Below, in pieces: positions 7,746 through 29,638 of a DNA stretch of 64,000 bases. Each line of letters opens with the position of its first letter. Position 1 is the first letter of the stretch. The stretch lies in NCBI GenBank assembly GCA_016203395.1, contig JACQMV010000035.1:415-64414 (forward strand). The letters are read 5' to 3'. The notes under the pieces were generated by a model. It did not search any database. It saw only the letters and a list, made by a program, of their open reading frames with translations, and was not told where the DNA came from. The translations under genes and the position numbers were made by a program. This DNA is from Candidatus Woesearchaeota archaeon (lineage in GTDB: Archaea; Nanobdellota; Nanobdellia; Woesearchaeales; ARS49).

Positions 7746-7844
7746 TTATTCTTACGGAAGAAGCCACAATATATACGTGCTTAACATTAAATAAATATCA
7801 ATATATATGCGTCCAAAAAACCCTGCTAAAAAACATAATGGGCT

Positions 7845-9029: not shown

Positions 9030-9330
9030 CTGCTAACTCTTATCTTAAATGAGGTCATAACCTATCAGCAGCTATTGTGCTCTGATTATGAACTTTAACG
9101 CAATTAACTCTTTTTAATTGACATGAGCAATACCATTTGTTGCAACCTGTTGCAAACACATTACAAGCAAAAGGTAAGGGCTAAGTATGGCAACAAAACA
9201 AGAAGCGTTCAAATCACGAGCCAAGCCACAAGGGCTGCTAGGAAATAACCATATCTTCTTTGGTAAGTATTGGCAGGTCTGGGAAAAGAATTACGCGCTC
9301 TTTGATAAGTATTAGCAGCCGGGGATTAAG
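9030..9330 (+). repeat. Dispersed modular intergenic repeat, copy A (plus orientation)
   Basis: Modules: gctaactcttatcttaaatgaggtcataacctatcagcagc; tgctctgattatgaactttaacgcaatta...ttgacatgagcaataccatttgttgcaacctgttgcaaacac; aaggtaagggctaagtatggcaacaaaacaag...caagccacaagggctg; tattagca. It matches copies at 26155, 34330 (reverse), 49320 (reverse) and 61706. Confidence 0.7.
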
Positions 9331-13610: not shown

Positions 13611-14669
13611 TTATATAATTACAGCAGAAGAATCTGATGTTCGTGTAAATATAGTTGATGGCTTATCCTTGAGAAAATCAAATGAGTATAGCCGAACAGT
13701 TTCCTCGCCACTTTTCAGGTCAGAGAGATAAGCATCAAGAAATTCCTGAACTAATTCATCCTGTGTTACTGGTTGCAATAACACAACCTGTTCCTCAAGC
13801 GGCAATTCATTTAGAAGTGATGGCTCTTCTTTCAACAGCGAATACACCAAATGACTTTTAGCCAATACTTTTCTTACTTCAGGAGAATTGACCTTCAAAT
13901 GATACTCAACACCATTCATTTTTGATGCATCAATGTTTAATTCTACAAAAGCAGCACCTTCCATACTTTTCAATCTGTTTTTTACTGCTTCATTGCTTAA
14001 CTTTACGAAATTTGCCGCATACAACTTGCTTAGCACTTTGTTCCTAGGAACTAAAGAGCCCTGAAATTCTGGAATAACCGGCTGGTTATGCGTTGCCATA
14101 AATAAACTATAAAATCCATTAAAGTGAGCTGTTTTACTGCCATTACATGAAATCTGATAAGATTTTGTTTCAAACTCCATCTCTAACAAATCAGGCCTTG
14201 CAAAGCCATCTATACCGCCAATTTGTGAATTAATTGTAGAAGCAGTAGTTAGCACTTCTAACATTAGTTTGTCATCCAAAATCATATACGGATTACGTTC
14301 AATATCCAAAATACGTCCAGACAAGTTCTTTATTTGCTGCACAGTCCCTTTTGAAGAATCCCAATTAATCCTGACACGGTAGCCCTGCTGCAATGGCGTT
14401 GTTTCCAATCTGCCAATCAAACAGTCGTTCTTAAGAACGCGAGCAATAATCCCTTTATTGCGTGAATAAAACTCGCGAAGTATCATCTGAAAATCAATGC
14501 CAGAAAACCTTATTGCGCAATCATAATCTGCATCAAGCTGGGATAGCGTTGCCAGAAGAAAAACCTTATCCTTAGCAACAAAACCACTAAAGTCAAGAGA
14601 TTGCTCACTGAAACCAGGCAATACTTGCGTAAGCATGTCAAATTCCTTTTGATTAATACTTACTTTCAT
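13611..14669 (-). CDS. Hypothetical protein (352 aa), last gene of the GHKL/ClpX-like operon
   Basis: ORF overlapping the 928-aa gene by 17 nt. No recognisable motifs. Confidence 0.45.
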   Translation of the reverse strand: MKVSINQKEFDMLTQVLPGFSEQSLDFSGFVAKDKVFLLATLSQLDADYDCAIRFSGIDFQMILREFYSRNKGIIARVLKNDCLIGRLETTPLQQGYRVRINWDSSKGTVQQIKNLSGRILDIERNPYMILDDKLMLEVLTTASTINSQIGGIDGFARPDLLEMEFETKSYQISCNGSKTAHFNGFYSLFMATHNQPVIPEFQGSLVPRNKVLSKLYAANFVKLSNEAVKNRLKSMEGAAFVELNIDASKMNGVEYHLKVNSPEVRKVLAKSHLVYSLLKEEPSLLNELPLEEQVVLLQPVTQDELVQEFLDAYLSDLKSGEETVRLYSFDFLKDKPSTIFTRTSDSSAVII

Positions 14670-17400
14670 CTGCTACCTCACGTTCATAAAATTCATACTT
14701 ATCAGATTCTTGTATTACCTTTTTAGCAACCACACTCAACGCTCTGCAAAGGTTTCCATGCGCAAGAGCTTTCTCCTCATTAATAAGTTCAAATATCGCA
14801 GGAGCAGAATAACTGCGTATGAGCTTTGCCCTTGTTTTGTAAAACAAGCTCTGAGTAAGTTCAGAATTAAGCTGCAAACCCTTGGCTTTACTGCCAAACA
14901 CTGCATTAAACAAAAACCTGCTTCTTGATGCCTCATCCATTACTTCAAGCCGTCTTACAAAAGCAGCATAATAACAATTTTCTACCAAAAACTCGGCCTG
15001 ATTTAGCGTTGCTGCAAAAGCAACCTCATCAGGATAAGCATTTCCAAGCCAAAAATCCAGTTCATTTCTTCTACCTTTTGATACAATCCTGCAAACAGCA
15101 CGCATTCTTTGAAAATCATCCAAGCCACTCAAGTAATTCTCCAACTTCAATTTGTTATTTTTGGAATAATAAAACAATGCAACAGCAGAAGGAGAGTTAT
15201 CACAAGCAAGCATGGCTCTTTCAAGCATTTCTGCATGCACTTCCAGTGCGTGATCACGTGATACGCAATCAGAAACAACGCCCTTGGCGTGGATTAACGG
15301 AATTAACGCATAAACCAGTTCTGGAATTTTTTTGTCGGCAACCAATACAAACTCAGAAGCATTCCTGCCAATACCAACGTGGAGGCCTTCATAATCCTGC
15401 TGAACTAATGTGTGTTTGTTATTAAAATGCATGCCGCACTCCTGACAATGGTTGAAATCAATCAGATTAAAACCAAAACCATGCATGTCACTCAATGCAA
15501 AACTCATCATTCTAACTAATGACTCCATTCTCGCCTTATTAGCTTCATTAATCGCATGCCTTTCATATACTCTTCTCTCAAAATAATTCCTGAGCATTCT
15601 ACTCACAGCAAAAGAATCTGATTTTTCCTGAGAATCAGCATCCTGCGTATGACGTGTTGCAGCATGCTTTACTGCATTAAATGAAGGCACTAAAACCTTT
15701 GTAGTAATAAAAGAATGACGCGCACTTTCTGACACTTTTTTGCTTGCAGATGCGCAATTATCAATCAAATAAGCTGAACCTTGCTTTATTGCATTACCTG
15801 CTGAACAAGACGCATCAAAAACCAAATTGTATGCACGACTAACTGCGCCTTTTACTCTCCTATAATTTTTCCTTGTAGAATCCTTCATTCTATTAATTGA
15901 TTTCTCATTCTTAGCAATAACTTCATTTCCAAAATCATAAGCAACATTTGTTGCCTTAGCAGCAACATAGCCAGTCAAACAAACACCGCCAATTGCTCCG
16001 CACGCAATTGCTCCTGTAGAAACAACATCAAGAATCACATCACCCACACTATATGCATTAACTGCCAATGCGCCTGCTCCAGCAATGTAAATTCCTGCAG
16101 CAGAAACAGTTTTTATTACCGGATTATTAATCCCTGAAAAAGGAGCGAGCAAAATATTAGCTCCTTTTTTTGCATGCTTTCCTCCAATGCACATGGCACG
16201 AGTGAGTGTGGCTTTTCTCTGCACATTACACAAGTAAGAATCATAATCCTTAATAGGAATATAACGCGATGGAGTGCAAAATATGTCAAAGAATACTCTT
16301 GTAAAGTCTATCTCAGAGAAATCAAGCACAAGCCCATCTCCTTCTTCAGGCAGTGTATTTTCTCTTGAAAAAAACAGTATCTTCGATCTCTGGTTAATAC
16401 TAAGAAAATCTGAGATATCTGCCAAAGAAAGTTTTCTGTTATAAACATCCTTAAAAACATCTGCTGTCACAACTGCGCTTTCAAGATCACCGAGCCGGTT
16501 ATTTCTTGCCCGGAGACCAATTACTTCCAATGGCAAATTAGACATAATGCCCTTTGCTAAAACCCCAAAGGGCTCATGAAACTCCTTATCATCAGGATGC
16601 TCAATAAACTTCTTTACAATCTCCAGATTCAACAAGTAAATGCCCTTTACTGCAGACTGTGTAAGATCCTGAACTGTTTTTTCTGATTCAAGAGCAGCAG
16701 TTGAAGGAACCATTGGAATATCCGGACTGTCAATAATAACATATTTTCCTGAACCAATAGTGCTTGTTGCACTATAAACAAGAACGTTGTTTCTGAGCAA
16801 CAACAGCTTACCTGATACTCCTTTTTGTTCTTCACAAAGCAAGCCAGCAACAGCTCTTGTATTACCTGCACTAAAATCAACTACACACCTTGATTTGATA
16901 TCAATATTAACTTTTTTCTTTCCAAGATATACTGGAACAGAACTGTATTTGCACCGTTCTATAATCTTGGCAACTGCGTTATCGTGAGACCCTTCTCGTT
17001 TCTTAACAACAACATGCATGCCGTTTTTTAAGGATGATTTCTCAAATGTCTGATGACCGAGAGCATCAATACGAAGCTGAACAGCACTGCCATTGTGAGC
17101 ACTATCAAGAATAATTTCCAACGGACTTATTGCAAATGCAGAATACACCAGTCCGGGAATGTTAGAACTGCCTGCTTGTGTGGTAAACGCCTGTTTGAGA
17201 GATTCTTCGCTAATACCCTCGCCATCTGAACGAACAGAAAATTCAGAAGCACTGCAATTAACTCTGACCTCGCCGGGTCTTGTCTGCATCACTAACTCAA
17301 CAAGAGCAGAAGCATACGCGCCCGGTTCCTTATCTGTGCACTGACCCAGCTTACGTGCCCTGCTAATAACATCCACTGTGTAAGGAAAATCTTTATTCAT
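14653..17400 (-). CDS. Large protein (about 915 aa) with a divergent N-terminal GHKL (Hsp90/MutL-like) ATPase-like domain and a Gly/Ala-rich hydrophobic segment; paralog of 17393..20038
   Basis: N-terminus MNKDFPYTVDV. N-box-like ALVELVMQT. G1-like SVRSDGEGISEESL. G2-like GLVYSAFAIS. A Gly/Ala-rich hydrophobic stretch GIYIAGAGALAVNAYSVGDVILDVVSTGAIACGAIGGVCLTGYVAAKA is present. Preferred start is ATG 17400, an 8-nt overlap with the upstream gene. Confidence 0.55.
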   Translation of the reverse strand: MNKDFPYTVDVISRARKLGQCTDKEPGAYASALVELVMQTRPGEVRVNCSASEFSVRSDGEGISEESLKQAFTTQAGSSNIPGLVYSAFAISPLEIILDSAHNGSAVQLRIDALGHQTFEKSSLKNGMHVVVKKREGSHDNAVAKIIERCKYSSVPVYLGKKKVNIDIKSRCVVDFSAGNTRAVAGLLCEEQKGVSGKLLLLRNNVLVYSATSTIGSGKYVIIDSPDIPMVPSTAALESEKTVQDLTQSAVKGIYLLNLEIVKKFIEHPDDKEFHEPFGVLAKGIMSNLPLEVIGLRARNNRLGDLESAVVTADVFKDVYNRKLSLADISDFLSINQRSKILFFSRENTLPEEGDGLVLDFSEIDFTRVFFDIFCTPSRYIPIKDYDSYLCNVQRKATLTRAMCIGGKHAKKGANILLAPFSGINNPVIKTVSAAGIYIAGAGALAVNAYSVGDVILDVVSTGAIACGAIGGVCLTGYVAAKATNVAYDFGNEVIAKNEKSINRMKDSTRKNYRRVKGAVSRAYNLVFDASCSAGNAIKQGSAYLIDNCASASKKVSESARHSFITTKVLVPSFNAVKHAATRHTQDADSQEKSDSFAVSRMLRNYFERRVYERHAINEANKARMESLVRMMSFALSDMHGFGFNLIDFNHCQECGMHFNNKHTLVQQDYEGLHVGIGRNASEFVLVADKKIPELVYALIPLIHAKGVVSDCVSRDHALEVHAEMLERAMLACDNSPSAVALFYYSKNNKLKLENYLSGLDDFQRMRAVCRIVSKGRRNELDFWLGNAYPDEVAFAATLNQAEFLVENCYYAAFVRRLEVMDEASRSRFLFNAVFGSKAKGLQLNSELTQSLFYKTRAKLIRSYSAPAIFELINEEKALAHGNLCRALSVVAKKVIQESDKYEFYEREVADESKY

Positions 17401-20038
17401 CAGAATCCTCCAAATAACTCTCCCATGATAGCGTTTCATGAATCAAAAAACGCGGTTGATCTTTAAGCAATTCCTTAACAACCCTATACTCATTATGTTC
17501 AGCCAATCTCTCGCGGATGAAACGCACTTTTGTTGATACACACGTCCCTTTTTTGTTTTCTGCTATACGCCTAACAACGCGGTCTGTTGCGTTCTCTAAA
17601 TCAATTCCAATAAAATTAACTGAATCGGCAATGTCGCGCATGGACTCTCTTGTCGGTTCATGGCAGAAATACAATTCAAAAGCAAGACCCATTCTTTTGT
17701 CACAATCCAGCAACCCGTATCTTGTCAAAAACGCACTCCTGTGATTTCGTTCAAGAAGCATAGCCATATTATTCGGAGTAATACTTGCGAGACGCTCAAC
17801 TTCTAAAGGAAATGCAGAAGCGAGCCATTCATCAATAACAGGAAAACGTTTACTAACATCATGCAAAAGCGAGTGGATAACTGCATTTTTTCTGGTATAA
17901 TCAAGCCATCTGATTTCTGTTTCTAAGCGAGAAAGGTCTTTCTTCGCATACCATTGCCTAAAGAATTCAGTAGGAGGGTAAACTAATGAATCAATACAAG
18001 TCCAAAGCACCCTTGAATTTATGTTTGTTGCATCTGCATAAGGAGATTTTGCACGTGTTGCTAATGCATGAGCAAGAGGAATTACTGTGTAAGCAAATGC
18101 GTTATCCTCCTTAATAGCGCTGACTAACTGCTGAAGTTCAGGGTTGTTACCATTCAAGCCAAAATGAGGATGCTCCGATCTACCGTCATTAAACATAGCC
18201 ATTAACTTCTTGCTCTTACTCAACACAAGATGAAACGGACATTCATAGCAATCATTTATTCTATCAACCCCTTTAGCGACAGTGTCCAAAACAAGTATTA
18301 AGTCAGCAAATTCTCTGGCTTTTTCTATCCTCTTCTTTTCTTCCTGTGCTTTTTCATCCTCTGCTGTTTTATTCAGCGAGTTTGAAAGCCACTCAAAAGG
18401 AGTTCTAAACATCTTACCAATATCAAACTTAGCTATTTTGACAGCACGATCTGCTGTACTTTCCAACAAAGGGGCGTATTTTTGCAGTTTTGAGCTACAA
18501 CTTTGTTTCAACCTGCGAATCCCCTCTATGTTCCTGTTAACAACGTAGTAAACGCCTGCTCCAGCAGCACCAGCACTTGCGGTAGTTGCTCCTGCAGCTG
18601 CAAGCAGCTTTAGTGCAGGTACAATATTCTGCCCCATATCAAACGTGCTGTATGCAAGCAAGCTAATACCCGAACCATAAGTCACGAGCGCAGTAGCACA
18701 AGCAGCTTTTTCACCAAGCAATTCTTCAACCTTTTTAAAAGGATGCATTAAGAAATTTGCTTGGGCTAAATACCTCACCCGAGTACGCTCCAAATACTCC
18801 TGCCTTCTCTGGCCAAAAGCAGCGTCTGAAATATAGGCATCATAATCCTGCACAGCACACCTCCAACTCGGGCTAGTAGTAGAAAAAATATAAGGATTAT
18901 CGCCTTTTAAAAGCAGGATAACAAATGGTTTTTTAGTGTCCTTTCTATGCGTATAAAAAATAATGCCTTTGTGTTGCTCCATCCTCTGCCTTTCTAAATC
19001 ATATATTGAATACACCCTGCCTTCATTATCGCGAAAAACCCCAGCAAGCAGTACGTGCCTCTTAATATCTGACAAACTGAGAGTGTTAGGATGGTCAAGC
19101 GATATAACACCAGCAACACTACGATACGCTTTGATACTTGATTCTGCCCTATCAAAAAAGAACCTTTTCGTAAATGTTCTTTCATTCACAAAAGGAGAAC
19201 GAATGTGCTCGTCAATAATCCCTTTTTCAAGAGCTTCCATTGCTTTGCCAACAACTGCTTTCAACAGGGTTACCTGCTTATCCTGCTCAAGCGAACGCCC
19301 GATACTAAACAATGGAAGTGTATCACAGTTTGCAATACCCCAAAAATCTTCATAACCCCATTTAAGATTCCCTATACTAATCCCTTTTCTAAGAACTCTA
19401 GTAGTGCCATAACAAGGATGGTCATAATGCGATTCTCTTGATTCACCCGTTCCTACAACACCTGTTATCCCTGAATCAGTAAATTCTTGCACAACACAAC
19501 AAGGAAATTTTAGTGGCTTGCTTAACTGTTTTTTCCCTTGAAATATCGGGGCAGTTGAATACAGACACTTTTTTCTAATACAAGGTGTTTCGTAATCAAA
19601 CAATGAATGAGTATTCTTTTCAACCATTACAAGTATTCCATTATCAAGAGAGCCAGTGCTGAAATTAGGATTGCCATTTTCATCAATTTCCAAACGCGTT
19701 TTTTCACCTCCCACAGAGGATTCAAGAAATATTCTTTTTGGACTGATTGCTAAAGCAGACATAAGCAAAACAAGAAGCCCTTCTGCTTTTCCAGCATCAA
19801 TAGCACTGCTGCCAGATGCGTAAATATCCTCAAGCTCTTTTCTTGTAAAACCGCCGGAAGGTGAGCGCACTCCAAAGGTGCTTGAAGTTCTACACAAGAC
19901 CATTCTTGAAGGATTGGTTTCTGCAACGAACCGAACAAGATTAACCGCATACTGCGCTTTATCATTTGTTTGATACATTGCCAGCTTTCTTACTTTGCTT
20001 GCCAAGTTCACCTTATACGGAAAATCACTGTCTGGCAT
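17393..20038 (-). CDS. Large protein (about 880 aa), paralog of 14653..17400, with a more degenerate GHKL-like N-domain and a Gly/Ala-rich segment
   Basis: It shares MPDSDFPYKVNL with the MNKDFPYTVDV of its neighbour. It has LVRFVAETNPS / RSPSGGFTRKEL / GLLVLLMSALAIS in positions equivalent to the N, G1 and G2 boxes. The Gly/Ala-rich stretch is LKLLAAAGATTASAGAAGAGVYYVV. Start chosen at ATG 20038 by paralogy, a 14-nt overlap. Confidence 0.5.
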   Translation of the reverse strand: MPDSDFPYKVNLASKVRKLAMYQTNDKAQYAVNLVRFVAETNPSRMVLCRTSSTFGVRSPSGGFTRKELEDIYASGSSAIDAGKAEGLLVLLMSALAISPKRIFLESSVGGEKTRLEIDENGNPNFSTGSLDNGILVMVEKNTHSLFDYETPCIRKKCLYSTAPIFQGKKQLSKPLKFPCCVVQEFTDSGITGVVGTGESRESHYDHPCYGTTRVLRKGISIGNLKWGYEDFWGIANCDTLPLFSIGRSLEQDKQVTLLKAVVGKAMEALEKGIIDEHIRSPFVNERTFTKRFFFDRAESSIKAYRSVAGVISLDHPNTLSLSDIKRHVLLAGVFRDNEGRVYSIYDLERQRMEQHKGIIFYTHRKDTKKPFVILLLKGDNPYIFSTTSPSWRCAVQDYDAYISDAAFGQRRQEYLERTRVRYLAQANFLMHPFKKVEELLGEKAACATALVTYGSGISLLAYSTFDMGQNIVPALKLLAAAGATTASAGAAGAGVYYVVNRNIEGIRRLKQSCSSKLQKYAPLLESTADRAVKIAKFDIGKMFRTPFEWLSNSLNKTAEDEKAQEEKKRIEKAREFADLILVLDTVAKGVDRINDCYECPFHLVLSKSKKLMAMFNDGRSEHPHFGLNGNNPELQQLVSAIKEDNAFAYTVIPLAHALATRAKSPYADATNINSRVLWTCIDSLVYPPTEFFRQWYAKKDLSRLETEIRWLDYTRKNAVIHSLLHDVSKRFPVIDEWLASAFPLEVERLASITPNNMAMLLERNHRSAFLTRYGLLDCDKRMGLAFELYFCHEPTRESMRDIADSVNFIGIDLENATDRVVRRIAENKKGTCVSTKVRFIRERLAEHNEYRVVKELLKDQPRFLIHETLSWESYLEDSDE

Positions 20039-22058
20039 TTTCAAGCTCCATAAATTTTTTGAAAAACCTTTTTTGAAACCTATGCGGATTGCCACTCAGG
20101 TAATATCTTGAAACTCCTTCAGTATACAACAAACTAATTGCGAAATAAGCAGCAAAGCATGGCTTTTTTGCATAATCATACTTTTCTGCAATAGCCATAA
20201 GCCGCCTTACTGTCGGACTGTTGAGGTTCACATAAACCTCTGTTTTACCTGACAATCCGAACTCAGACATGCTGATAAGATTCTGACCGCCAGAAGAGCC
20301 ATATCCTGCTTGCAGAAAACTGAAAGGAAAATCTTTTGTTTCGTTCAACACCTTTTCAGCCATAACCTCAACAATCTTTTTTCCAAGGTCATACTCCCTT
20401 ATTGCCCCTCTAATCAAATCACAGAACCTTTTTTCTTCAGCACTCAAATTCTGTGCTGTAACCTTTGACATAAACCTATACTGTTCTTCAACTTTCTTAA
20501 CCGTAACAATCTGGCTAAGAAATTCTTCAGGAAATGTCGAAGCAGAATCATACAATTTTGTTCTTATTATCGTTTTTCCTGCCTTCTGAAGCGCACTTGT
20601 AAGATCATTATGAGAAGCAGCAACATACACTACTTTGTTCTCCTTTGCCAGTCTCAAGACATCAGTAATAGACAAACACTCTCCCTGAGTTGTTTGAAAA
20701 ATACGGCGCTGAAGACAATCAGCAGGCAGGAATTGCCATACTTTCTTTTTCCGCACAATCTGAAAACTTCCTTTCTGAGTAAGCTTGCCTACCTGAATAT
20801 CGTAATTTTCCTCATACACTGTTGCAGTGCATTCCCGCAAAGGCAGAAAAGAACGAGCATGCTCACTCTGTGCTACTGCTTTAAGCTTGAGTTTTTTCAA
20901 ATGATTTGAAAGTGTTTCCAACAAAATGGAATACTCCTGAGACAATTCACCAATTTCTTTGTAAAAATCGTAATCTGTTGAATGCCTCTGACGTAGTTGT
21001 TGCACATTCATTGTTGTTATTTCCTCTAAACGCCTGTAAATCTGCTTTACAAGAAGCGGCTCCTGAGCACGAACAATTGCTAACGCATGCTCAAAATAAG
21101 AATCCCTCATTGCCTGCGTTCTGTCAATAGTGTGTTTAAACCTCGGAGATTCCAATAGCACAGACCACGAGTCGTTGGTTAAATTCCTGCCTTGTTCAAT
21201 AGAAATACCGTGCTCCTCAATCTGATAATCTGCAACAGCACGTTCATTATTACGCTGTTTTCTCAGTGCAATAACTCCTTTCAAATCACCGCTTGAAAAC
21301 TTAATCTTTGCAACAGCATCCTCAATATCAAAGGGCCGGTTGATTGTCATTTTATTGATGTACATAGGAATTTCAATATGATGTGCCCGTGAAGTAACCT
21401 CAGACATCATTCTGCTGATGAAATCAACTGCATGATGCTGCGCATCAAAATGCCTAACAAAGATTTCTCTTGTTCCACGATCTTTTGGCTTTGTTTTTGA
21501 CAAAGCCGGATCAGTAATAAGGTCATAAACATAATTCAGCGATTTAATTGAAAATATCTGCTGATTGAACTGGTCTTCACGCCCGGTAACATTCGTAAAC
21601 CGCGCCTGCCACCACTCAGCGTCTTTTGTTGATTCAATAGCATACACGTCAGGAAGCAGTTTGAAAACTGATTTCCCTCCAATACCAAATTTGCCTGCTT
21701 TTGTTACATCAAACTCCTTGGCTGAAAAATACATGTTAAAAAACCTACTGTCACGGTCCTCATGAGTCATGCCTATACCATAGTCCTCAGATACTATCAT
21801 AACTGTGAAAAGAGAATTGCCACAATTTGCTTTAAACTCATCAAGCATACCCAATCCGGCAAGCCGTGAGTCTCTTTCAGCATCTGGCTTTTGCTCATCT
21901 AAAAAATACCACCAGTCTATCTGAGGCGTTTCTGAATCACGATGATTCTGAACAAGCTCTACCCACGCCATTTCAGCCCTTGGAAACTGGTCAACAACCT
22001 GCTCAAGATTTCTTCTGGCATCCTCAAGAACAGGATCATCAAGAACAAACTGCGTCAT
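20025..22058 (-). CDS. GHKL-superfamily (Hsp90/MORC/MutL-like Bergerat fold) ATPase, 677 aa
   Basis: N-box ELVQNHRDS. G1 box EDYGIGMTHED. G2 box GKFGIGGKSVFK. The roughly 500-aa C-terminal region is unassigned. Confidence 0.65.
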   Translation of the reverse strand: MTQFVLDDPVLEDARRNLEQVVDQFPRAEMAWVELVQNHRDSETPQIDWWYFLDEQKPDAERDSRLAGLGMLDEFKANCGNSLFTVMIVSEDYGIGMTHEDRDSRFFNMYFSAKEFDVTKAGKFGIGGKSVFKLLPDVYAIESTKDAEWWQARFTNVTGREDQFNQQIFSIKSLNYVYDLITDPALSKTKPKDRGTREIFVRHFDAQHHAVDFISRMMSEVTSRAHHIEIPMYINKMTINRPFDIEDAVAKIKFSSGDLKGVIALRKQRNNERAVADYQIEEHGISIEQGRNLTNDSWSVLLESPRFKHTIDRTQAMRDSYFEHALAIVRAQEPLLVKQIYRRLEEITTMNVQQLRQRHSTDYDFYKEIGELSQEYSILLETLSNHLKKLKLKAVAQSEHARSFLPLRECTATVYEENYDIQVGKLTQKGSFQIVRKKKVWQFLPADCLQRRIFQTTQGECLSITDVLRLAKENKVVYVAASHNDLTSALQKAGKTIIRTKLYDSASTFPEEFLSQIVTVKKVEEQYRFMSKVTAQNLSAEEKRFCDLIRGAIREYDLGKKIVEVMAEKVLNETKDFPFSFLQAGYGSSGGQNLISMSEFGLSGKTEVYVNLNSPTVRRLMAIAEKYDYAKKPCFAAYFAISLLYTEGVSRYYLSGNPHRFQKRFFKKFMELENARQ

Positions 22059-23037
22059 CTTTCACCCCGGGAATTACAAAAACACGCTCACCAACAAGAA
22101 TGTTTTTTGTTGAAACATAATAACGAGACAACAGTTCCCTAAATTCTGTTGAATCCCTGCTTGAATGATTCGCAGAAACCTCTTTTGACATGACTGCTAA
22201 AGCACAACCATCACCAATTGAGGAAAATACTTTGAAAGCAAGATCATCTGCCTGAATAGTTCTTTGAGTGACGCTCGTTGCAGGAAAATAAAAAGGGCCT
22301 ATTGTTGACATCGTAACCCTCAAAGGGCGTAAGTTTTTGTAATGCTGTATTATCTTAAAAAGTTCTGAGGGCTCAACATGATAAGCGCGCTCAAAAACAG
22401 AACGCAAAAAACTGCACAATTCAACACCATCAGGAGAAAACCTTATTTTGGCTTTTGAAAACAGCTTTTCAACATAAGCCATTTCTGCTGTATACTTCAC
22501 AAACAAGTTTTTTGTCACATCAAAACCATCAATAACAACATCAATTCCGTGCTCATTCTGCGTCCTGCCACTGTAACTAGCAGCAATGGAAATTAAAGCA
22601 ATGAAAGGAAAGTCTTTGACACGCTCATAATACTTTCTCATCTTCAAACTCTTTCTTGGAGCGTCTAATACGCTGAGAGATGGAACAGTAATTTCGGACA
22701 ATGTCTGCTTTACAAGCCCAACAACCTTTTCAGTATTATGAGTTCGCGCAAGACTATCACTGGCAATTCTTTTATCAACCTCTAATGCCATATAACTTCC
22801 TCTTGTCGGAAAACCAGATTCTAAATCAACCTCCAAACCATCATGAATTTTACAGGCAATCGCCGAAGTCATTAATGATAAGGAATCAATAATGTATTCT
22901 GTATCAGGATACCTTGGAGTAAGAATGCCCACTCTCTGCGAATGCCTTAAAGCAGAGAATAATAAAGAAAGATAATCTAGCGATTCCTGACTGGAAAATC
23001 TTTTGACAGGGGTTTCCAAAACAGGGTGTTGTAGCAT
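22039..23037 (-). CDS. Hypothetical protein (332 aa)
   Basis: ORF in operon context, overlapping the next gene by 20 nt. No motif recognised. Confidence 0.45.
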   Translation of the reverse strand: MLQHPVLETPVKRFSSQESLDYLSLLFSALRHSQRVGILTPRYPDTEYIIDSLSLMTSAIACKIHDGLEVDLESGFPTRGSYMALEVDKRIASDSLARTHNTEKVVGLVKQTLSEITVPSLSVLDAPRKSLKMRKYYERVKDFPFIALISIAASYSGRTQNEHGIDVVIDGFDVTKNLFVKYTAEMAYVEKLFSKAKIRFSPDGVELCSFLRSVFERAYHVEPSELFKIIQHYKNLRPLRVTMSTIGPFYFPATSVTQRTIQADDLAFKVFSSIGDGCALAVMSKEVSANHSSRDSTEFRELLSRYYVSTKNILVGERVFVIPGVKDDAVCS

Positions 23038-23054
23038 AGCATCATTTTTTTTTC

Positions 23055-24251
23055 TTATGGTGTATCTTCTTCTTTCGGTGAAGGGAGCTTTTTTACGTAT
23101 TCACTAAGCCCGGTTCCTTGCGAGTCAGCGGCAGCAAGATATCTCTGCACTGCAGAAGGATTGCCTTCTCTTAGTGACTGAAGTGTTGCAATAAGCGCCT
23201 GTTTCGCGCCTCCCTCATCAGCTACTAGTGCCTGGAGCGCGCTTTCAGCTGCCTGGTTGCTTGCATCAATAATGTCAGGAAGGAATACCTGAGAACTAAC
23301 TAATCCTTCATGATTCTTTGCAAGAAGTTCAAGTGACTGTCCGGATGCCTTCATTGTTGCATTCAAAACTTTATTTAGGTCAGTATACATTCCCGCAGTC
23401 TTCTCATATAGTTCTGCAACCTTTGCTAACTGAGTCATCTGTTTAAGCATTGGACCTTTTTTATCCAGTGTGCTTCCAACTTTAGCAACTTGATCAATAA
23501 GCATGGCTGCATAAAGCGCTAACTGTTGAGCTATTGCCCTGCTGCTTTCTATATCCTCAACAAGTTCATAAGTTCTTGATTTAGCAACAGAATTATTTAT
23601 TCTTGCTTCTTCAATGCTCTGCTCAAGCAAACTAATGGCTCTATGTAATTCTATGCCTTCTGTAGGCAATTCAGCAGCAGGAATGTTTTTATATTTTTTG
23701 AATTGCTCAGTTGCTAGCGCATATTGTCCATCAAGCTCTCTCCCATACTTTTCTATACGCTCTCTTGTTTTTGCAAGACCAACAAGTTCATCTTCTGCCT
23801 GGCTGATACTTGTTCTTAATTGTTTAAGCGTACTTAATATTCCTTCATCATTCTCAACATAGGTTCGTATAGTTGCAATGCGCTCTCTCGTTTTTGCAAT
23901 AAAACTTTCAAGAAATTCATTAACTTCCTGTCTTGCAAGATAACTGCCTAGCCAAGGAACTTTATGAACCAGAGCGTTGCCTGCTTCTTTTGCACTTTCC
24001 CATCTTTTTCCCTCTGAAAATATCCCTTTAACTGCAGGCAGAAACTCTTCGTGTTTCTTGACTGTAGCTGCGACCATGGTTCTGACCTCTTCCCATATCT
24101 TACCTGTTTCGCCCATAACTTTTTCTGCTTTTTTCCTTTTCTCAGCCCTTTCCAGTGACGCTTGTTTTGATTCTGCAATTAAATTAGTAAGTTCAGGTAG
24201 AGCAGCATTTGGCTCGGAAGTCATAAGTGATAATTTTCCTGAATTATTCAT
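23055..24251 (-). CDS. Alpha-helical, coiled-coil-rich hypothetical protein (398 aa)
   Basis: Highly charged heptad-like sequence with E/K/L/A-rich runs. The start overlaps the ClpX-like gene by 8 nt. Confidence 0.45.
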   Translation of the reverse strand: MNNSGKLSLMTSEPNAALPELTNLIAESKQASLERAEKRKKAEKVMGETGKIWEEVRTMVAATVKKHEEFLPAVKGIFSEGKRWESAKEAGNALVHKVPWLGSYLARQEVNEFLESFIAKTRERIATIRTYVENDEGILSTLKQLRTSISQAEDELVGLAKTRERIEKYGRELDGQYALATEQFKKYKNIPAAELPTEGIELHRAISLLEQSIEEARINNSVAKSRTYELVEDIESSRAIAQQLALYAAMLIDQVAKVGSTLDKKGPMLKQMTQLAKVAELYEKTAGMYTDLNKVLNATMKASGQSLELLAKNHEGLVSSQVFLPDIIDASNQAAESALQALVADEGGAKQALIATLQSLREGNPSAVQRYLAAADSQGTGLSEYVKKLPSPKEEDTP

Positions 24252-26043
24252 TTTTATTGCCTGCCTTTTGCTTTAGCTTTCGCTTAACATAGCTATTTAA
24301 ATAAGCATCAGGATTGTTTAAGAAATCTTTAGTAACTGTAAACGTATCTTGTTTTATAAGCTTTAAAGCATACGGAAGAGTGGCTGTTGCGCTTTCAAGC
24401 GCACTAATAAATGCCTGCGGCCTCAAAGCATCAAATTCTATTCCTTTAACATTAATCCTCAAAGCAATGTCTTCTTTAGTAAGATACTTTCTTGCAAATC
24501 CTCTAAAATAGTGCTGTATGAAAAAGCAATCACTCTCTGCTTTCGGCTCCTGCACAAAAGAAGGCGAGATTCTCACATTATTAACTCCTGTTAATCCAGG
24601 AAGACCGGTTCTTAAATGACAAAGAACGTCCTCAGTAACAGTCATTATTGACCTTGCACCAAGCCCAAGAGAGTGCGCTTTTTTGGCCATTGCTCTTAAG
24701 GCATCATCATCAAATTCTACACTAACACCTGTTGCAGAACGTATCAGATTCTGCTGTTGCTTCAAAAGAGAAATATCTGACTCAGTCATTATGCGCAAAA
24801 TGTCATTTTCTGTAAGATCATGAAATGGAGCAATATATGGAAGACGACCAACTAACTGGTGAAGGAAGCCATACTCGGTAAGGTCCTGTGAACTAACTTT
24901 TGTTAAAAGCCCATACTTTCTTGCACTAGCAACATCGTTTGTTTCTCTCTTAAACCCTACTGTCTGTTCTCCTAAACGTTTTTCAACAATGTCTTCAATA
25001 CCTTCAAAAGCACCACCTAAAACAAAAAGAATGTATTTTGTGGATATTTTTCTCTGATTGCCGAACATTGTTGTCAGTGGGTTATGATCAGGTAAAGCAT
25101 CAATCAAGCAGTTTTCAAGCATTCTCAAAAATGTTCCCTGAGTTTCTTTTGAAAACCAACCACCCACTCCTTCAGTGCCTTTTACAAGTTTGTCTGCCTC
25201 ATCAATAAAAATAACGCCATAAGGCACAAGAGAATGATCCTTTGACTGCTTGTATAATTCCCTTACTGCATCAGTAGCATCTTTGCCGTAAATTCCTGTT
25301 GGAGTAAACTGGGTTGCATCAACTGCAAGAAAAGGAAGACCTACTACTTTTGCAAGAGCACTGACAAGCGAAGTCTTACCAACACCAGTTGAGCCGATGC
25401 ACAAAACACCACCTTTGCGATAATCTGGAATTTCAGCTCCTTTAATTGCTTGCTGAACAGCACTTGCATGATAAAAGAATGCATTAGCCAATACCTGTTT
25501 AGCCCCATCCTGACCAATAATAGTTTTGTCAAGGGCGGCAATCATTTCCAAAGGCAAAGGGCAGTGTGTGAGAGATTTTGGCTGAGCAGATACTTTATGT
25601 TCGGCTTCAGAAACAGGAGATTCTGGCTGAAAAAAAGGAGAGTTCTCAAATATCTCTCTGAACAGGTCCTTAGGAAATAAGTCCTCAGGAGAACCACTTA
25701 ACTTTCTCATGTTTTTCAACACCTCTTTGAGCATTTGTTCCCTTTTACCTTCTAAAATCGGCCGCACCTTATCTGGAGGAGGTAATTTATTATCTACAAC
25801 AAGCTGATGAAGTTTAGAATACATTGTTGAACCGTCATCTTTTTTTGAAGGAGCATAGCCAAACCTTTGGTCATATCCGTCAACAAACGCGGTTATTCTT
25901 CCTTTCACAAATGGCTTTGCTGCCCTAGTTAAGAAATTTGTTGGCATGCTATCAATTTCATTCATAATTGCTTTTGCATACGCCCTTACTTTTTCCGTCT
26001 CTGATAACTTATCCCACGCAGGGTCCTTTTCACGGTCAGCCAT
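24244..26043 (-). CDS. ClpX/HslU-like AAA+ unfoldase ATPase (orphan: no Zn-binding N-domain, no adjacent peptidase)
   Basis: IIGQDGAKQVLANAFFYH resembles ClpX VIGQEQAKKVLAVAVYNH. Walker A GSTGVGKTSL. Pore-loop-like TGIYGKDA (ClpX GYVGEDV). Walker B VIFIDEADKL. There is an approximately 160-aa N-terminus and an approximately 100-aa C-terminal extension, both novel. Confidence 0.65.
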   Translation of the reverse strand: MADREKDPAWDKLSETEKVRAYAKAIMNEIDSMPTNFLTRAAKPFVKGRITAFVDGYDQRFGYAPSKKDDGSTMYSKLHQLVVDNKLPPPDKVRPILEGKREQMLKEVLKNMRKLSGSPEDLFPKDLFREIFENSPFFQPESPVSEAEHKVSAQPKSLTHCPLPLEMIAALDKTIIGQDGAKQVLANAFFYHASAVQQAIKGAEIPDYRKGGVLCIGSTGVGKTSLVSALAKVVGLPFLAVDATQFTPTGIYGKDATDAVRELYKQSKDHSLVPYGVIFIDEADKLVKGTEGVGGWFSKETQGTFLRMLENCLIDALPDHNPLTTMFGNQRKISTKYILFVLGGAFEGIEDIVEKRLGEQTVGFKRETNDVASARKYGLLTKVSSQDLTEYGFLHQLVGRLPYIAPFHDLTENDILRIMTESDISLLKQQQNLIRSATGVSVEFDDDALRAMAKKAHSLGLGARSIMTVTEDVLCHLRTGLPGLTGVNNVRISPSFVQEPKAESDCFFIQHYFRGFARKYLTKEDIALRINVKGIEFDALRPQAFISALESATATLPYALKLIKQDTFTVTKDFLNNPDAYLNSYVKRKLKQKAGNKNE

Positions 26044-26154
26044 TCAAAAGTTATATCTGGATAGTTTATAAACCTATCTTAAAAAACTCACTACCGAGTG
26101 AGCACACTCCTGCTAAAAATCATCTGAGCAAATAACATATCTGCCTTGCAGCCC

Positions 26155-26450
26155 GTGCTAATTCTTGTCTTAAATGATGTTATAGGTTATCAGCAGCCAT
26201 TGCTAATTCTTATCTTAAGAGGTTATAACTTATCAGCAATCTTTGTGCTATGATTGTGAACTTTAACGCAATTAGCCGTTTTATTGACAAGAGCAATACC
26301 ATTTGTTGCAAATGATTGCAAACACGGTGCAAGCACATGGTAAGAGCTAAGTATAGCAACAAAACAAGATACCTTCAAACTACTCATCAAGCCACAAGAG
26401 CTGCGAGCCAGATACTAATTTATACACCCGGAGTATTTTTAGCAGATTTT
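26155..26450 (+). repeat. Dispersed modular intergenic repeat, copy B (plus orientation; 5' module tandemly duplicated)
   Basis: ctaattcttgtcttaaatgatgttataggttatcagcagcc and ctaattcttatcttaagaggttataacttatcagcaatc are a tandem pair. Then tgctatgattgtgaactttaacgcaattagcc...ttgacaagagcaataccatttgttgcaaatgattgcaaacac...ggtaagagctaagtatagcaacaaaacaag...caagccacaagagctg...agtatttttagca. Confidence 0.7.
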
Positions 26451-26455
26451 AGTAA

Positions 26456-27364
26456 TCAATTATTGTGAATGGCTACGATATTAATATTATGCCAGTATTC
26501 GTAGCCGTTTTTGTTATCATACTTAAGCCCGAGCTTGCGTAAGTATGCCATCCATCTTTGATTGTTTAGAATATTATTAACTTTCAAAGGAACATTCTTA
26601 GAACAGAGCGAAACATGCGCATTTGCTTTTTCAAACAACTTAGGACATAATGAAGAAGCATTCACAGCCAAAACGCCCTTTTTGTTTAAATACTTCCGTC
26701 CTTCACTCAGCAGGTGCTCAAGCAAGCCAATTCCCTCATAAGCGTTATCATCAATGCTGTTAGGCCTTGGAACATAAGGAGGATTACATATCAACAAATC
26801 AAATTTCTGCCTGGAAATTATTTGCAAACCATCCCCAACAAGGAATTTTGCACGTTCGTCCTGTATATTATCCTGCGCGCAACGAATTGCATACACATTA
26901 AGATCATTTACGAGAAGTTCATTCATTTCTGGAAGCTTGTGAAGAACATATTTGCTTAAAAATCCAGAGCCGCAACCAATTTCACAAGCAACCCTGAAAT
27001 CCTGCCTATCACAAAATAACTGTCTAAGAGCATTTGCAAAAACCAGGGTATCAATAGAAGGAGACCATACTCCTCTATATGGGGCGCTCGTGTGAACGCT
27101 TATTCCGTCATATTCCATCCATTTTTTTGGAGAACTGAATAGCGAAAATAATGTATCGCGAATCCTTGGAGCCAATTGCGAAATCCGCCAGTTGTCTGTT
27201 ACAAGAACAGGATCATCAAACTCATACACCCATTCTCTCATACTATCAGGATAAGCATGCACTCTTTTGCCGTCTTCCCTGTCCTTGCCCATTATTGATG
27301 CGAGCTCATCGCCATTTGCAAGAATTGCCTGTCTGGTGATAGCGGTATTGAATTGGGTAATCAT
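26456..27364 (-). CDS. NPPY-motif amino-group methyltransferase (HemK/PrmC-like or N6-adenine-like), last gene of the NAD operon
   Basis: Motif I ACEIGCGSGFLS. Motif IV DLLICNPPYVP. The roughly 130-aa N-terminal region is unassigned. 4-nt overlap with the NadK-like gene. Confidence 0.6.
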   Translation of the reverse strand: MITQFNTAITRQAILANGDELASIMGKDREDGKRVHAYPDSMREWVYEFDDPVLVTDNWRISQLAPRIRDTLFSLFSSPKKWMEYDGISVHTSAPYRGVWSPSIDTLVFANALRQLFCDRQDFRVACEIGCGSGFLSKYVLHKLPEMNELLVNDLNVYAIRCAQDNIQDERAKFLVGDGLQIISRQKFDLLICNPPYVPRPNSIDDNAYEGIGLLEHLLSEGRKYLNKKGVLAVNASSLCPKLFEKANAHVSLCSKNVPLKVNNILNNQRWMAYLRKLGLKYDNKNGYEYWHNINIVAIHNN

Positions 27365-28251
27365 GATGACTCCGGCACAATCACATTGAGCGGTTGATTG
27401 CTTACTCTTATTATCGCAGTGCTACCCCTATGAAATTCATAGTTTTCCCAACAGTCAGAGGTTGCAATGCCCTCTGAATCATTCAAAGACTGAAGCTCAA
27501 CAACATCTCCTGGAAAAAGCTCCCCTTCAAAAATGTTTACACCTCTCTTGAACCTATATGGCTCTGTAGCAATAAAAACTGCTTTCTGCTCTGTCGGTGC
27601 AAAAACTCTCCCTTCATTATGCAAGTATCGTACTGTAGAATCATACCATCCGGTGCTCCCTGCACCAGTTGCAAAAATAAACCCTGAATTTTTTTGCTCA
27701 TACTTCATTTCGCCGAGCCTCCCGCGATAAACCAAAACGTGCCTTGACATAAACTCTCTTAGTCTTTCTCCAAAAAAGTATTCGCTCGTACCAAGAGCCA
27801 TTGGCTTATTATCAACAAATCCCTCAAGCCGCGTCCACTTATTTATACGATACTGCTTATTATGAATCCTTTCAATTACCTGTTCAGGAGTTTCAGAACC
27901 CCAACCGCACAACGCGCCTATACTTCTTGAAGGGTCAGAATTAACACCCATAATAGGAATACTATCAAGAAAATGAGTTACGTAAGTAAAACTATTGTCG
28001 CCTCCCAAAGAAACAACTAAGTCCTGCTCTTTAACTGGTTCTTTAAGCCCGGACATTGCAATCATGCGCGCGTCAGGAAGCAATTCAGCAAAACGTTTGC
28101 GCACAAAAAGCTGGTGTTCATGACTGTCAATAATTACTTTCAGGTTTGCACCCTCACTGCTATATTTCTTAACAAGTTCTTCATGCGAAATCCCGAACTT
28201 TTTTCTATCCCACTCATACTTTGATTCCTTTGCAACAATAAGAATCCTCAT
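27361..28251 (-). CDS. nadK: NAD kinase-like (ATP-NAD kinase family)
   Basis: DLVVSLGGDNSF resembles the GGDG(T) motif. IMGVNSDPSRSIGAL resembles NxGxLGFL. FATGAGSTGWYDS resembles TPTGSTAYS. It is flanked by NAD-pathway genes. Confidence 0.55.
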   Translation of the reverse strand: MRILIVAKESKYEWDRKKFGISHEELVKKYSSEGANLKVIIDSHEHQLFVRKRFAELLPDARMIAMSGLKEPVKEQDLVVSLGGDNSFTYVTHFLDSIPIMGVNSDPSRSIGALCGWGSETPEQVIERIHNKQYRINKWTRLEGFVDNKPMALGTSEYFFGERLREFMSRHVLVYRGRLGEMKYEQKNSGFIFATGAGSTGWYDSTVRYLHNEGRVFAPTEQKAVFIATEPYRFKRGVNIFEGELFPGDVVELQSLNDSEGIATSDCWENYEFHRGSTAIIRVSNQPLNVIVPESS

Positions 28252-29231
28252 TTATCCCTCCCAAGAGAGAGCATTTTCTGAATTGCATTAAGCGCTTTCA
28301 TCCTTACCTCTTCAGAAACGGTTATTTTAAAAACATCATCCTCCAGTGAACGTCTTACCTTCCCAAGAGTGATAGCTTTCATGTACGGGCATACACAGGA
28401 CTCGTCACAACTTTTGTGATTGTAAACTGCAAAAAACTGTTTAAGAGGGTGAGCGCGCTGAAGCATCTGAACAAGTCCGAGCTCTGTGCCAATAATAAAT
28501 TCTTTTTCTGAGGAAGCTCTTACAAAATCCACCATGCCTGTGGTTGATAACACTTCATCAGCCAGCTCGGTAACATCAGGAGAACATTCAGGATGCGCCA
28601 AAACAACAGCACAAGGATGTTGCGCAATCACACTCTCAATAAGCTCTTTCGTAATTGCCTTATGAACAGGACAATAACCTTCCCATGGAATTATTGTCTT
28701 ACTGGTTTTCGGCTGGAAGGAATAATAAAGATTTTTATCAGGAGCAAGAAGCACTTTATCACTATCAACTGCTTCAATCGCTTTTAACGTATTTGCTGAA
28801 GTGCAGATTATGTCTGCATGCGCCTTAACTGCTGCTGATGAATTAATATACAAAACCAACGGCAGCCCGGGATATCTTGCTTTCCATTCAACAACCTTTT
28901 GTTCATCAATAGTATCTGCAAGAGCACACCCTGCTTCACGCGAAGGCAGGAGAACTGTTTTTTCCGGATTAAGAATTTTGGCAGTTTCAGCCATGAAGTG
29001 AACACCACAAAAAACAATTCTATCATGTCTTGTTTTTGTCGCTTGCATACTTAATCCATATGAGTCTCCAACAAAGTCAGCTATCTCGTGCACTTCAGGA
29101 CGCTGGTAGGTGTGACACAACACCAAACAGTTTTTCTCTGCTTTCAAAGAACGTATTGCTAAAACATTCTCCTGCACACTAAGAGAGTCATACGCGTCCT
29201 TATTATTAATTATTTTGAAAGGACTTTCCAT
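28248..29231 (-). CDS. nadA: Quinolinate synthase NadA
   Basis: [27 protein letters not shown] resembles [36 protein letters not shown] is present. Conserved cysteines are [13 protein letters not shown]. Confidence 0.85.
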
Positions 29232-29638
29232 TCTTCATACTCCCTCACTCTTTTGTTGTGGTCAAACGCCAACTTAGGAATCTGCGAAAGTGGAAACACT
29301 CCTGCTTTCTTTGCATCATCCTTTCCTATGGGAATTCCTGTTGCACGACCAACAAAGCCAACACTGTTAACATGGGCTCTTGGATCACGATCTGGCTCAG
29401 AATACGCCCTTAGCTGGCAGTCATACAATTCAACATCAAGAGTTGTTTCTTCTTTTGATTCTCTGACTGCTGCTTCCTCAAGAGTTTCTCCCACTTCCTG
29501 AAAACCACCTGGCAAAGCCAACATTCCCTGAAAAGGCGGGTTTTTTCTTGTCACCAAAACAATGCCTGTCATTTTATTATCCTCATAATGCTCTATAATC
29601 ACATCAACTGCTGTTGGAGGATTATTATTATGACTCAT
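29210..29638 (-). CDS. Nudix hydrolase
   Basis: Nudix box [24 protein letters not shown] (G-x5-E-x7-REUxEExGU). Start at ATG 29638, an ATGA overlap with the upstream gene. The 3' end overlaps the nadA start by 22 nt. Confidence 0.7.

Follow-up and report, generated by a model that had tools for sequence, protein, structure and literature searches.

We analyzed a stretch of 64,000 nucleotides (nt) from the genome of a Candidatus Woesearchaeota archaeon (assembly GCA_016203395.1, contig JACQMV010000035.1, positions 415 to 64,414), to which we refer in its entirety as the window. Seven minus-strand genes, which together occupy 12.4 kb of it, encode what we infer to be a machine of the HSP90 type, one whose partners are without precedent and whose phyletic range is new. 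The anatomy of this system is solid, and its function is put forward by inference. In the order of transcription, the genes encode a ClpX-like AAA+ protein, a coiled-coil protein (family A), a protein of family B, an HSP90-like ATPase that we call H, two HSP90-derived pseudo-ATPases (P2 and P1) and a protein of family C (Table 1). HSP90 is a central chaperone of bacteria and eukaryotes, whereas most archaea are considered to lack it. The window contains a deeply divergent branch of this family, lying below the Pfam and NCBIfam thresholds and accompanied by two inactive copies, predicted to be membrane-tethered, and by further partners. An earlier reading of this DNA, made without database searches (the sequence-only reading), had proposed the seven genes as a candidate undescribed system, a combination that it could match to no known chaperone, topoisomerase, mismatch-repair or named defense system. 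This proposal is supported: we found no published description of the cassette in the literature on GHKL, Hsp90, sacsin, DnaJ, ClpX, RIIA, archaea or conflict systems, nor did we find B, C, P or the cassette covered by any model of Pfam, NCBIfam or PADLOC. It can be refined in that H is HSP90-like and in that the system is not unique to this genome.

Judged from its sequence and from a predicted structure, H is a catalytically intact but very divergent three-domain HSP90 homolog. We draw this conclusion because H keeps the residues of the ATP site, because its family matches HtpG over the N, middle and C domains, and because structural searches return full-length HSP90 proteins. Homologs were sought exhaustively with HMMER among 1.84 billion cluster representatives, which yielded 325 of them at an E-value of at most 1e-3 and 51 at an E-value of at most 1e-10; a word-index search with H returned only H itself. 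Pfam HATPase_c_3 is found in 35 of the 36 best homologs, and the SACS domain in 29 of these 36. Such numbers indicate that the ATPase motifs that the sequence-only reading had quoted, all of which lie where it placed them, are not due to chance. Twelve residues are invariant in the family (in H numbering, E34, N38, D41, D92, G94, G96, G122, G125, G127, G195, T196 and R313), and H retains every one of them, in keeping with the clean Bergerat signature that had been attributed to this protein.

A profile of these 36 sequences matches Escherichia coli HtpG with an E-value of 9.6e-23 in two stretches, one of which is the N domain (HtpG residues 4-213) and the other of which spans residues 294-605. 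In the HMMER alignments, the family's 'HTLSRD' is placed on the catalytic loop, i.e., on 'NVSRE' of HtpG and 'NISRE' of Hsp90-beta, and the C-terminal 'LN.DHPyi' on 'LNPDHVLV' and 'INPDHPIV'. The arginine of the catalytic loop (R380 in yeast) closes the Hsp90 clamp on the gamma-phosphate of ATP (PMC12280139). An AlphaFold2 (AF2) model of H, built with the family alignment, has a mean predicted local distance difference test score (pLDDT) of 79.7 and a predicted template modeling score (pTM) of 0.77. When this model was compared to the Protein Data Bank (PDB) with Foldseek, the top 50 matches were all full-length chains of Hsp90, TRAP1, Grp94 or Hsc82, with E-values from 1e-20 to 1e-17. The three features by which HSP90 is defined were all found in H: a Bergerat N domain, a middle domain with the catalytic arginine and a C-terminal dimerization domain.

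The divergence of H is so great that every curated HSP90 or HtpG threshold is missed. Direct scans with H are weak (Pfam HATPase_c_3, E-value 0.002; the NCBIfam sacsin N-terminal model NF047352, 7e-4; SACS, 0.025; the latter two are below cutoff), and the Pfam HSP90 model does not match it. Relatives of H score 43-47 bits on the HtpG and HSP90 models, whose cutoffs are 371-455, and likewise do not reach the curated Pfam and NCBIfam thresholds. On the evidence of the profiles and of the model, the GHKL label that had been given to H can be made more precise: the family is HSP90/sacsin-like and deeply divergent. Since this family is HSP90-like over three domains, the block is not a fragment of topoisomerase VI or of a MutL-MutS complex.

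P1 and P2, as their motifs and profile matches testify, are paralogs that derive from HSP90 and whose ATP sites are dead or crippled. They match one another over their full length (E-value 5e-39, 24% identity), and a profile of the two sequences matches the H family over 340 columns of the N and middle domains (hhalign probability 98.1%, E-value 7.9e-14). A separate profile of nine archaeal P proteins finds the N domains of TRAP1 and Grp94 as its top eleven PDB matches, with E-values of approximately 1e-3, and the P relative of 1000 amino acids (aa) in the related locus L006 passes the Pfam HATPase_c cutoff. It had been suggested that the large proteins are GHKL-related and that one module is active and the other two are not, and these results bear out both suggestions. 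In P1, the glutamate of the N-box is retained and the Mg-binding asparagine is replaced by glutamine. P2 has lost the catalytic glutamate of the N-box, the Mg-binding asparagine and the adenine-binding aspartate of the G1 box. The glycine-rich ATP lid is missing from both proteins, and the Mg-binding asparagine has been lost in every archaeal and bacterial P protein that we read.

In the middle of both P1 and P2 are two uncharged, Gly/Ala-rich stretches of 22-24 residues each, with a short polar loop between them. All nine archaeal P proteins examined have uncharged stretches of 20-46 aa; the four bacterial ones examined have none. We interpret this feature as a putative membrane hairpin that would leave both halves of the protein in the cytoplasm. 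The helical C-terminal region that follows the hairpin carries a module in common with family C, which is described below.

The cassette is widespread and unannotated, and is not peculiar to the source genome. The closest homolog of H (P0073, in L006, from a Pacearchaeota metagenome-assembled genome (MAG)) lies inside a block of co-directional genes. In order, this block encodes proteins of 361 aa (resembling g398, the family A protein of the window, E-value 2e-6), 378 aa (resembling g332, of family B, 2e-7) and 369 aa, the 602-aa H (3e-34), the 1000-aa relative of P1 and P2 (2e-10) and a 443-aa protein (resembling g352, of family C, 2.5e-11). The order A-B-C-H-P recurs in six other DPANN loci, namely L006, L007 (the same as L010, from Woesearchaeota), L009, L051, L089 and L090. 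For six of the seven genes of the window, homologs are thus clustered at six other archaeal loci and partly also in bacteria, which answers affirmatively the question of whether homologs are co-localized in other genomes.

A degenerate-pattern scan of GTDB species genomes yielded 384 relatives, and we analyzed 76 loci. The bacterial relatives belong mostly to Myxococcota (Nannocystis, Enhygromyxa, Plesiocystis and Bradymonadales), to Vulcanimicrobiota/Eremiobacterota and to MAGs labeled as Burkholderiales. In 30 of the 76 loci, the gene immediately after H encodes a paralog of 900 aa or more. These H-P pairs span Myxococcota and other phyla and are annotated as hypothetical or as 'ATP-binding protein'. 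In nine bacterial loci (L041, L064, L065, L061, L069, L037, L043, L066 and L074), the order is coiled coil, B, an AAA+ protein of the classic clade (c5) and H. The c5 proteins are of approximately 558 aa, have a Walker A motif of the form 'G(T/R)PG(C/S)GKT' and lie between B and H (e.g., L041 8294-9970); they match no curated family. One niche of the cassette is filled in three ways: by a J domain, by a classic AAA+ protein or, in the window only, by a ClpX-clade AAA+ protein.

Two further observations concern individual archaeal loci. In the Woesearchaeota MAG CALDOJ010000007 (L007 4529-21081), there are three tandem, diverged H-P pairs (708/1115, 680/935 and 704/905 aa), after which come three small proteins (171, 167 and 122 aa) that are paralogs of one another. 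Upstream of the L006 cassette (L006 5512-6623), in the position that the AAA+ gene has in the window, are genes for proteins of 268 aa and 102 aa with Gly/Ala-rich hydrophobic stretches and no detectable homology to the AAA+ protein of the window.

The J domain of this niche is carried by family A. BLASTP matches g398 to the 361-aa protein of L006 (E-value 2e-6) and to the 410-aa protein of L009 (4e-4), which is J-like. The A relatives L007_424 (Pfam DnaJ, E-value 1e-10) and L089_473 end in a canonical J domain with the HPD motif, and the A proteins of L009, L090 and L051 have degenerate J-like ends. Nothing J-like is found at the ends of g398 and L006_361, and the L006 cassette is also without an AAA+ protein. 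None of the seven proteins of the window yielded a J domain or a HEPN domain in library scans and alignments. The archaeal A family and a coiled-coil family of the bacterial loci (c4) are probably homologous, as suggested by an hhalign match (84%, E-value 7.5e-6) and a common 'PW(L/V).S' motif.

The sequence-only reading had described the remaining small proteins as one coiled-coil protein and two proteins without motifs. The coiled coil is family A; however, B and C have turned out to be conserved families with homologs. Family B has the conserved motifs 'SG(L/F)P' and 'GPFYF' and adjoins an HSP90-like gene in 18 archaeal and bacterial loci (phmmer and hmmsearch). It has no sequence match in Pfam, NCBIfam or the PDB, and a word-index search with its alignment found two hypothetical proteins only.

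Family C has no sequence match in the PDB. BLASTP matches g352 to the 443-aa protein of L006 (2.5e-11), and we assigned g352 to family C because these two proteins together match the remaining members of the family (hhalign 97.3%, E-value 2.5e-11, 294 columns). In relatives, family C usually lies between B and H. A module of 55-120 aa, which ends in a sequence like '(W)L.ENY..LVEEVG', is common to family C and to the C-terminal ends of P proteins. This similarity was detected between L006 8890-9999 (369 aa) and L006 11853-14855 (1000 aa) at an E-value of 1e-7, and between L089 8457-10004 and L051 10963-14130 at 2e-4; the module may be a docking element. Other candidate relationships of family C did not hold up. 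The bacterial c5 AAA+ proteins were rejected as relatives by an hhalign comparison. A relationship to DUF6638 is unconfirmed, as three members match it weakly (E-values of at least 1e-3, far below the cutoff). The presence of DUF6638 upstream of myxobacterial H-P pairs was rejected, since the genes there encode unrelated housekeeping enzymes.

The first gene of the block encodes the 599-aa AAA+ protein, which had been read as ClpX/HslU-like and as lacking the zinc-binding domain. Both points hold. On the NCBIfam ClpX model NF003745, its score is 228 bits over residues 149-502 (cutoff 359); it reaches 205 bits on TIGR00382 (cutoff 371) and 124 bits on HslU, and it matches Pfam AAA, AAA_2 and ClpB_D2-small. 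Its closest database relatives are bacterial ClpX proteins, with 31-36% identity in the AAA+ module only; aligned with bacterial ClpX, it is 26-31% identical. The C4 zinc-finger N-domain (PF06689), which is present in the closest ClpX matches (P0003-P0007 and P0009), was found neither by library scan nor by alignment, and an unrelated region of approximately 165 aa stands in its place. This region and a C-terminal region of approximately 100 aa are private to the protein. The RKH loop is also absent: 'DHNPLTT' stands where ClpX has 'GRKHP'. The tripeptide VGF occupies the position of the IGF loop, and tblastn searches of the 64 kb window with the E. coli proteins ClpP, HslV and DnaK gave no significant match, so the statement that no ClpP or HslV partner is present holds for the window. 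Zinc-finger-less ClpX-like proteins elsewhere, such as P0010 (804 aa) and P0072 (586 aa), are not counterparts in a cassette, as their neighborhoods are unrelated.

The case for counting the ClpX-like protein as a part of the system is circumstantial. Its stop codon overlaps the start of the J-less A gene by 8 nt, and in relatives a J domain or another AAA+ protein occupies the same niche, from which we argue by analogy. Of the seven-gene set described earlier, the AAA+ gene is the one component that no other cassette contains.

Given these components, our tentative interpretation, to which we would assign somewhat less than an even chance, is that the operon encodes a membrane-tethered, ATP-driven clamp of the HSP90 type that has its own accessory proteins and is fed by an unfoldase. 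GHL ATPases dimerize via their N and C domains; in HSP90, the dimer is held by the C domain and closed by ATP-dependent association of the N domains. By analogy with this mode of dimerization, H would pair with P1 or P2, and the resulting clamp would be asymmetric, with a single active ATP site. The P hairpins would tether it to the cytoplasmic face of the membrane in DPANN archaea, and A, B and C would act as co-chaperones or adaptors. Clients would come from an unfolding or holding machine, which in relatives would be Hsp70, recruited via the J domain of A, or a classic AAA+ protein. In the source genome, A would have lost its J domain; the feeding of clients would have passed to an unfoldase of the ClpX clade, presumably acquired by horizontal transfer and coupled to A in translation. 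A reasonable guess is that the clients are membrane or surface proteins of an episymbiotic cell, and the system might thereby point to membrane-protein clients relevant to the episymbiotic lifestyle. If the machine works as proposed, it would show how an HSP90 clamp takes clients from Hsp70, from a classic AAA+ protein or from a ClpX-type unfoldase. Even if this mechanism is wrong, the cassette is a well-defined and widespread target.

It is important to consider several points that weigh against the clamp. The ClpX-like gene is absent from all other cassettes found, both archaeal and bacterial, and its product has no close relative in the database search. Because the 'VGF' loop is kept and the IGF loop docks ClpP in ClpX, the protein could serve a ClpP encoded outside the window. 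The searches with B and C yield no functional clue. The hairpins in the P proteins are called from hydropathy and charge alone, and the AF2 model of P1, made from an alignment of two sequences, is unusable (pLDDT 33), so that the fold of the P proteins is backed only for the N-terminal 360 residues or so. Finally, the patchy distribution and the tandem amplification in L007 also suit a conflict system.

Such a system is the subject of one alternative, in which the cassette provides immunity: the HSP90-like switch would sense an invader or membrane damage, the membrane-inserting P proteins would be effectors in the manner of abortive infection, and the AAA+ and J components would set the threshold. 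Its appeal lies in the patchy occurrence across distant phyla, with several copies in a genome (Nannocystis punicea, Enhygromyxa salina DSM 15201 and E. salina SWB007 have two loci apiece), and in the three tandem, diverged H-P pairs of a single Woesearchaeota locus. The hairpins are glycine-zipper-like and could form pores, and phage RIIA proteins are the closest viral structural relatives after giant-virus Hsp90 (Foldseek E-value 1e-13; hhalign 95.9% to T4 RIIA). However, hairpins are missing from the bacterial P proteins, and no effector domain, whether nuclease, protease, TIR, SIR2 or another, turned up in library scans. PADLOC-DB v2 has no match to H, P1, P2, B or C, and only weak, generic coiled-coil or AAA matches to A and the AAA+ protein (E-values of at least 5e-4). 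Neither IMG/VR viral contigs nor GenBank phages contain relatives, which also led us to reject viral carriage of the family. Moreover, the neighbors are housekeeping genes both in the window and at bacterial H-P pairs (where they encode, e.g., catalase, sugar transferase, GH114 and aminotransferase), and the GC content of the operon is the same as that of its flanks. We consider an immunity function improbable on balance.

A different alternative accepts the clamp and restricts it to six genes, such that the ClpX-like protein is an ordinary, divergent subunit of the ClpXP type whose gene is co-transcribed through genome compaction. The genome of the source, a DPANN archaeon, is expected to be very small; DPANN genomes are compact, and overlaps of unrelated genes are common in them. 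Together with the absence of the gene from every other cassette locus and the retention of all catalytic motifs and of a loop of the ClpP-docking type, this speaks for the alternative. We nonetheless think it unlikely. In addition to overlapping A, the gene has the block's single promoter-like element upstream of it; its product has lost the zinc-finger N-domain and the RKH loop, which are the parts of ClpX concerned with substrates and adaptors, and has gained private termini; and ClpP was not found in the window. The lack of a J domain in A here (as in L006, which has no AAA+ protein) and the different AAA+ protein in nine bacterial cassettes also argue against a bystander. It could instead be supposed that H and P are GHL ATPases acting on DNA or chromatin, of the MORC, MutL or topoisomerase VI-B type. 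All share the GHKL fold, but the sequence profiles pick HSP90 first and extend through its specific middle and C domains, and the full-length Foldseek matches are all to the Hsp90 family. No DNA-binding, nuclease or Toprim domain and no CW- or S5-only architecture was found, and the partners are coiled-coil/J-domain and AAA+ proteins. This explanation is highly improbable.

The membrane-tethered clamp can be compared with several known systems. Like HtpG, TRAP1, Grp94 and Hsp90, H has a three-domain layout, the arginine of the catalytic loop and a motif of the 'NP.HP' type in the C domain. However, H is only approximately 12-16% identical to these proteins in structural alignments and is far under the Pfam and NCBIfam HSP90/HtpG thresholds, it has no MEEVD tail, and its gene lies beside those of dedicated A, B and C proteins and of one or two large paralogs that are inactive. 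We know of no partners of HtpG that are inactive paralogs or that are of the A, B or C type. As for ClpX, the likeness consists of the large and small AAA+ domains, Walker A and B, the arginine finger, sensor-2, an aromatic pore-1 loop and an IGF-like loop; the differences are the missing C4 zinc finger and RKH loop, GIYG in place of GYVG, the private termini, a score far under the cutoff, and an archaeal host with no ClpP in the window. A precedent for asymmetric clamps is provided by heterodimeric GHL ATPases with one weakened subunit (for example, eukaryotic MutL-alpha, Mlh1-Pms1), in which an active ATPase is joined to a diverged paralog. These are, however, DNA-repair proteins of another GHL branch, and the pairing of H with P is proposed by analogy.

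The eukaryotic protein sacsin has Hsp90-like modules and a J domain that recruits Hsp70 (PMC3710099). In sacsin, Hsp90-like SRR repeats, a J domain and a HEPN domain are combined in one protein, whereas in the cassette the modules are separate polypeptides of an operon. The J domain is on the coiled-coil protein in relatives and missing in the window, and there is no HEPN or ubiquitin-like domain. Phage T4 RIIA, a 'membrane integrity protector', shares GHKL N-domain motifs with the H family (hhalign 95.9%, E-value 6.5e-9), predicted structures of phage RIIA proteins align with H over 500-870 columns (Foldseek E-values from 1e-13 to 1e-10), and a link to the membrane, predicted in our case, is common to both. 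The sequence similarity is, however, confined to the N domain, and the cassette has no relatives on viral contigs. PHROGs and PADLOC gave nothing beyond a weak hint of RIIA, and we rejected family B as a homolog of RIIB, since the hhalign probability against T4 RIIB was 0.1%.

These comparisons suggest a broader hypothesis, which we hold as possible though doubtful: that A-B-C-H-P is an ancient, unrecognized protein-remodeling machine of prokaryotes. It would consist of an HSP90-derived active/inactive pair, a membrane anchor in DPANN and a swappable feeder (a J domain with Hsp70, a classic AAA+ protein or a captured ClpX), would be the first HSP90-type system of DPANN, and would be a plausible prokaryotic relative of the sacsin architecture and of phage RIIA. 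If true, it would place the origin of sacsin in a prokaryotic setting, and likewise RIIA, which has long been unexplained.

The gene layout is as had been described: seven minus-strand open reading frames (ORFs) at 13611-26043, chained by the quoted junctions. From the first gene to the last, these are an overlap of 8 nt, a gap of 17 nt and overlaps of 20, 14, 8 and 17 nt. The overlaps of 14 and 8 nt apply when P2 and P1 start at the internal ATGs at 20038 and 17400. The ORF of P2 is open back to a GTG at 20095 (17393-20095, 900 aa), and that of P1 back to 17439 (14653-17439, 928 aa). However, gene prediction carried out independently for three Logan contigs of related samples also uses the internal starts, and these starts give P2 and P1 the common N-terminus M..DFPY(K/T)V, in agreement with the shared DFPY(T/K)V start noted previously. 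That all seven genes form one transcript is a reasonable inference from this layout. Upstream of the AAA+ gene are, in order, a dispersed repeat (26219-26441, within the interval 26044-26455 to which it had been assigned), a hairpin with a T-run and a TATA-like box. We regard 26065-26103 as the putative control region of the operon. As the box is 22-29 nt from the ATG, a leaderless or short-leader transcript would be expected.

Table 1. Features of the seven-gene block and its control region, and copies of the dispersed repeat, in window coordinates
Feature	Position	Strand	Remark
ClpX-clade AAA+ ATPase, 599 aa	24244-26043	minus	ORF
AAA+ Walker A (GSTGVGKT)	25372-25395	minus	intact
AAA+ pore-1 loop 'GIYG'	25279-25299	minus	aromatic; GYVG in ClpX
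AAA+ Walker B (VIFIDEADKL)	25186-25215	minus	intact
AAA+ IGF-like loop 'VGF'	24949-24963	minus	
AAA+ arginine finger 'GRLP'	24835-24852	minus	intact
AAA+ sensor-2 'GARS'	24646-24660	minus	intact
Family A coiled-coil protein (g398), 398 aa	23055-24251	minus	ORF
Family B protein (g332), 332 aa	22039-23037	minus	ORF
H, divergent full-length HSP90-like ATPase, 677 aa	20025-22058	minus	ORF
H N-box 'VELVQNHRDS'	21933-21962	minus	
H G1 'EDYGIGMT'	21765-21788	minus	
H G2 'GKFGIGGKSVF'	21663-21695	minus	
H 'GT' motif	21465-21482	minus	
H catalytic-loop Arg313	within 21114-21137	minus	
H C-domain 'LNSPTV' motif	20199-20231	minus	
P2, HSP90-derived pseudo-ATPase	17393-20038	minus	881 aa from ATG 20038
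P2 degenerate N-box 'VRFVAETNPS'	19907-19936	minus	
P2 G1 'SPSGGFT'	19844-19864	minus	
P2 uncharged Gly/Ala-rich hairpin	18536-18706	minus	putative
P1, HSP90-derived pseudo-ATPase	14653-17400	minus	915 aa from ATG 17400
P1 N-box 'ALVELVMQT'	17281-17307	minus	Glu kept, Asn replaced by Gln
P1 G1 'SDGEGIS'	17209-17229	minus	shortened (SDGEG)
P1 transmembrane-like hairpin	15958-16110	minus	putative; two 23-aa uncharged segments
Family C protein (g352), 352 aa	13611-14669	minus	ORF
Archaeal TATA-like box TTTATAAA	26065-26072	minus	22-29 nt before first ATG; read from sequence
Terminator-like hairpin and T-run	26081-26103	minus	read from sequence
Dispersed-repeat copies	7842-7905, 9051-9276, 26219-26441, 34358-34695, 49313-49438, 61713-61918		tandem/inverted copies at 34358-34695

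The genes that flank the operon are housekeeping genes, encoding an aldolase, ribulose-phosphate epimerase, a HemK-like methyltransferase and the NAD enzymes described next; a convergent thioredoxin-reductase gene abuts the downstream end of the block. A cluster for NAD metabolism (NAD kinase-like, NadA, NAPRT and NadE; window 27361-34322) adjoins the operon, and a related cassette is likewise near NadA and a NUDIX/NrtR-like regulator (L089 1079-4294). The proximity to NAD genes in these two loci may reflect a conserved neighborhood or a coincidence. Elsewhere in the window are genes for a eukaryotic-type Ser/Thr kinase (36470-37231; Pkinase, E-value 9e-38) and an XPD/Rad3-type helicase (340-2127; DEAD_2, HBB and Helicase_C_2).

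The dispersed repeat is intergenic, is approximately 160-230 nt long and occurs in both orientations, with copies that are 68-95% identical. It has no match in Rfam, and may be an element resembling a miniature inverted-repeat transposable element (MITE), or a regulatory or RNA element. Two independent Logan assemblies of the same organism (L001 and L002, 12.6-12.8 kb) break 174 nt upstream of the operon, at approximately 26217, because the edge of the repeat lies there. Both also end within approximately 240 nt past the last gene (approximately 13370), a break for which the repeat does not account. L002 stops essentially at the last gene, and L001 reaches the 3' end of the thioredoxin-reductase gene.

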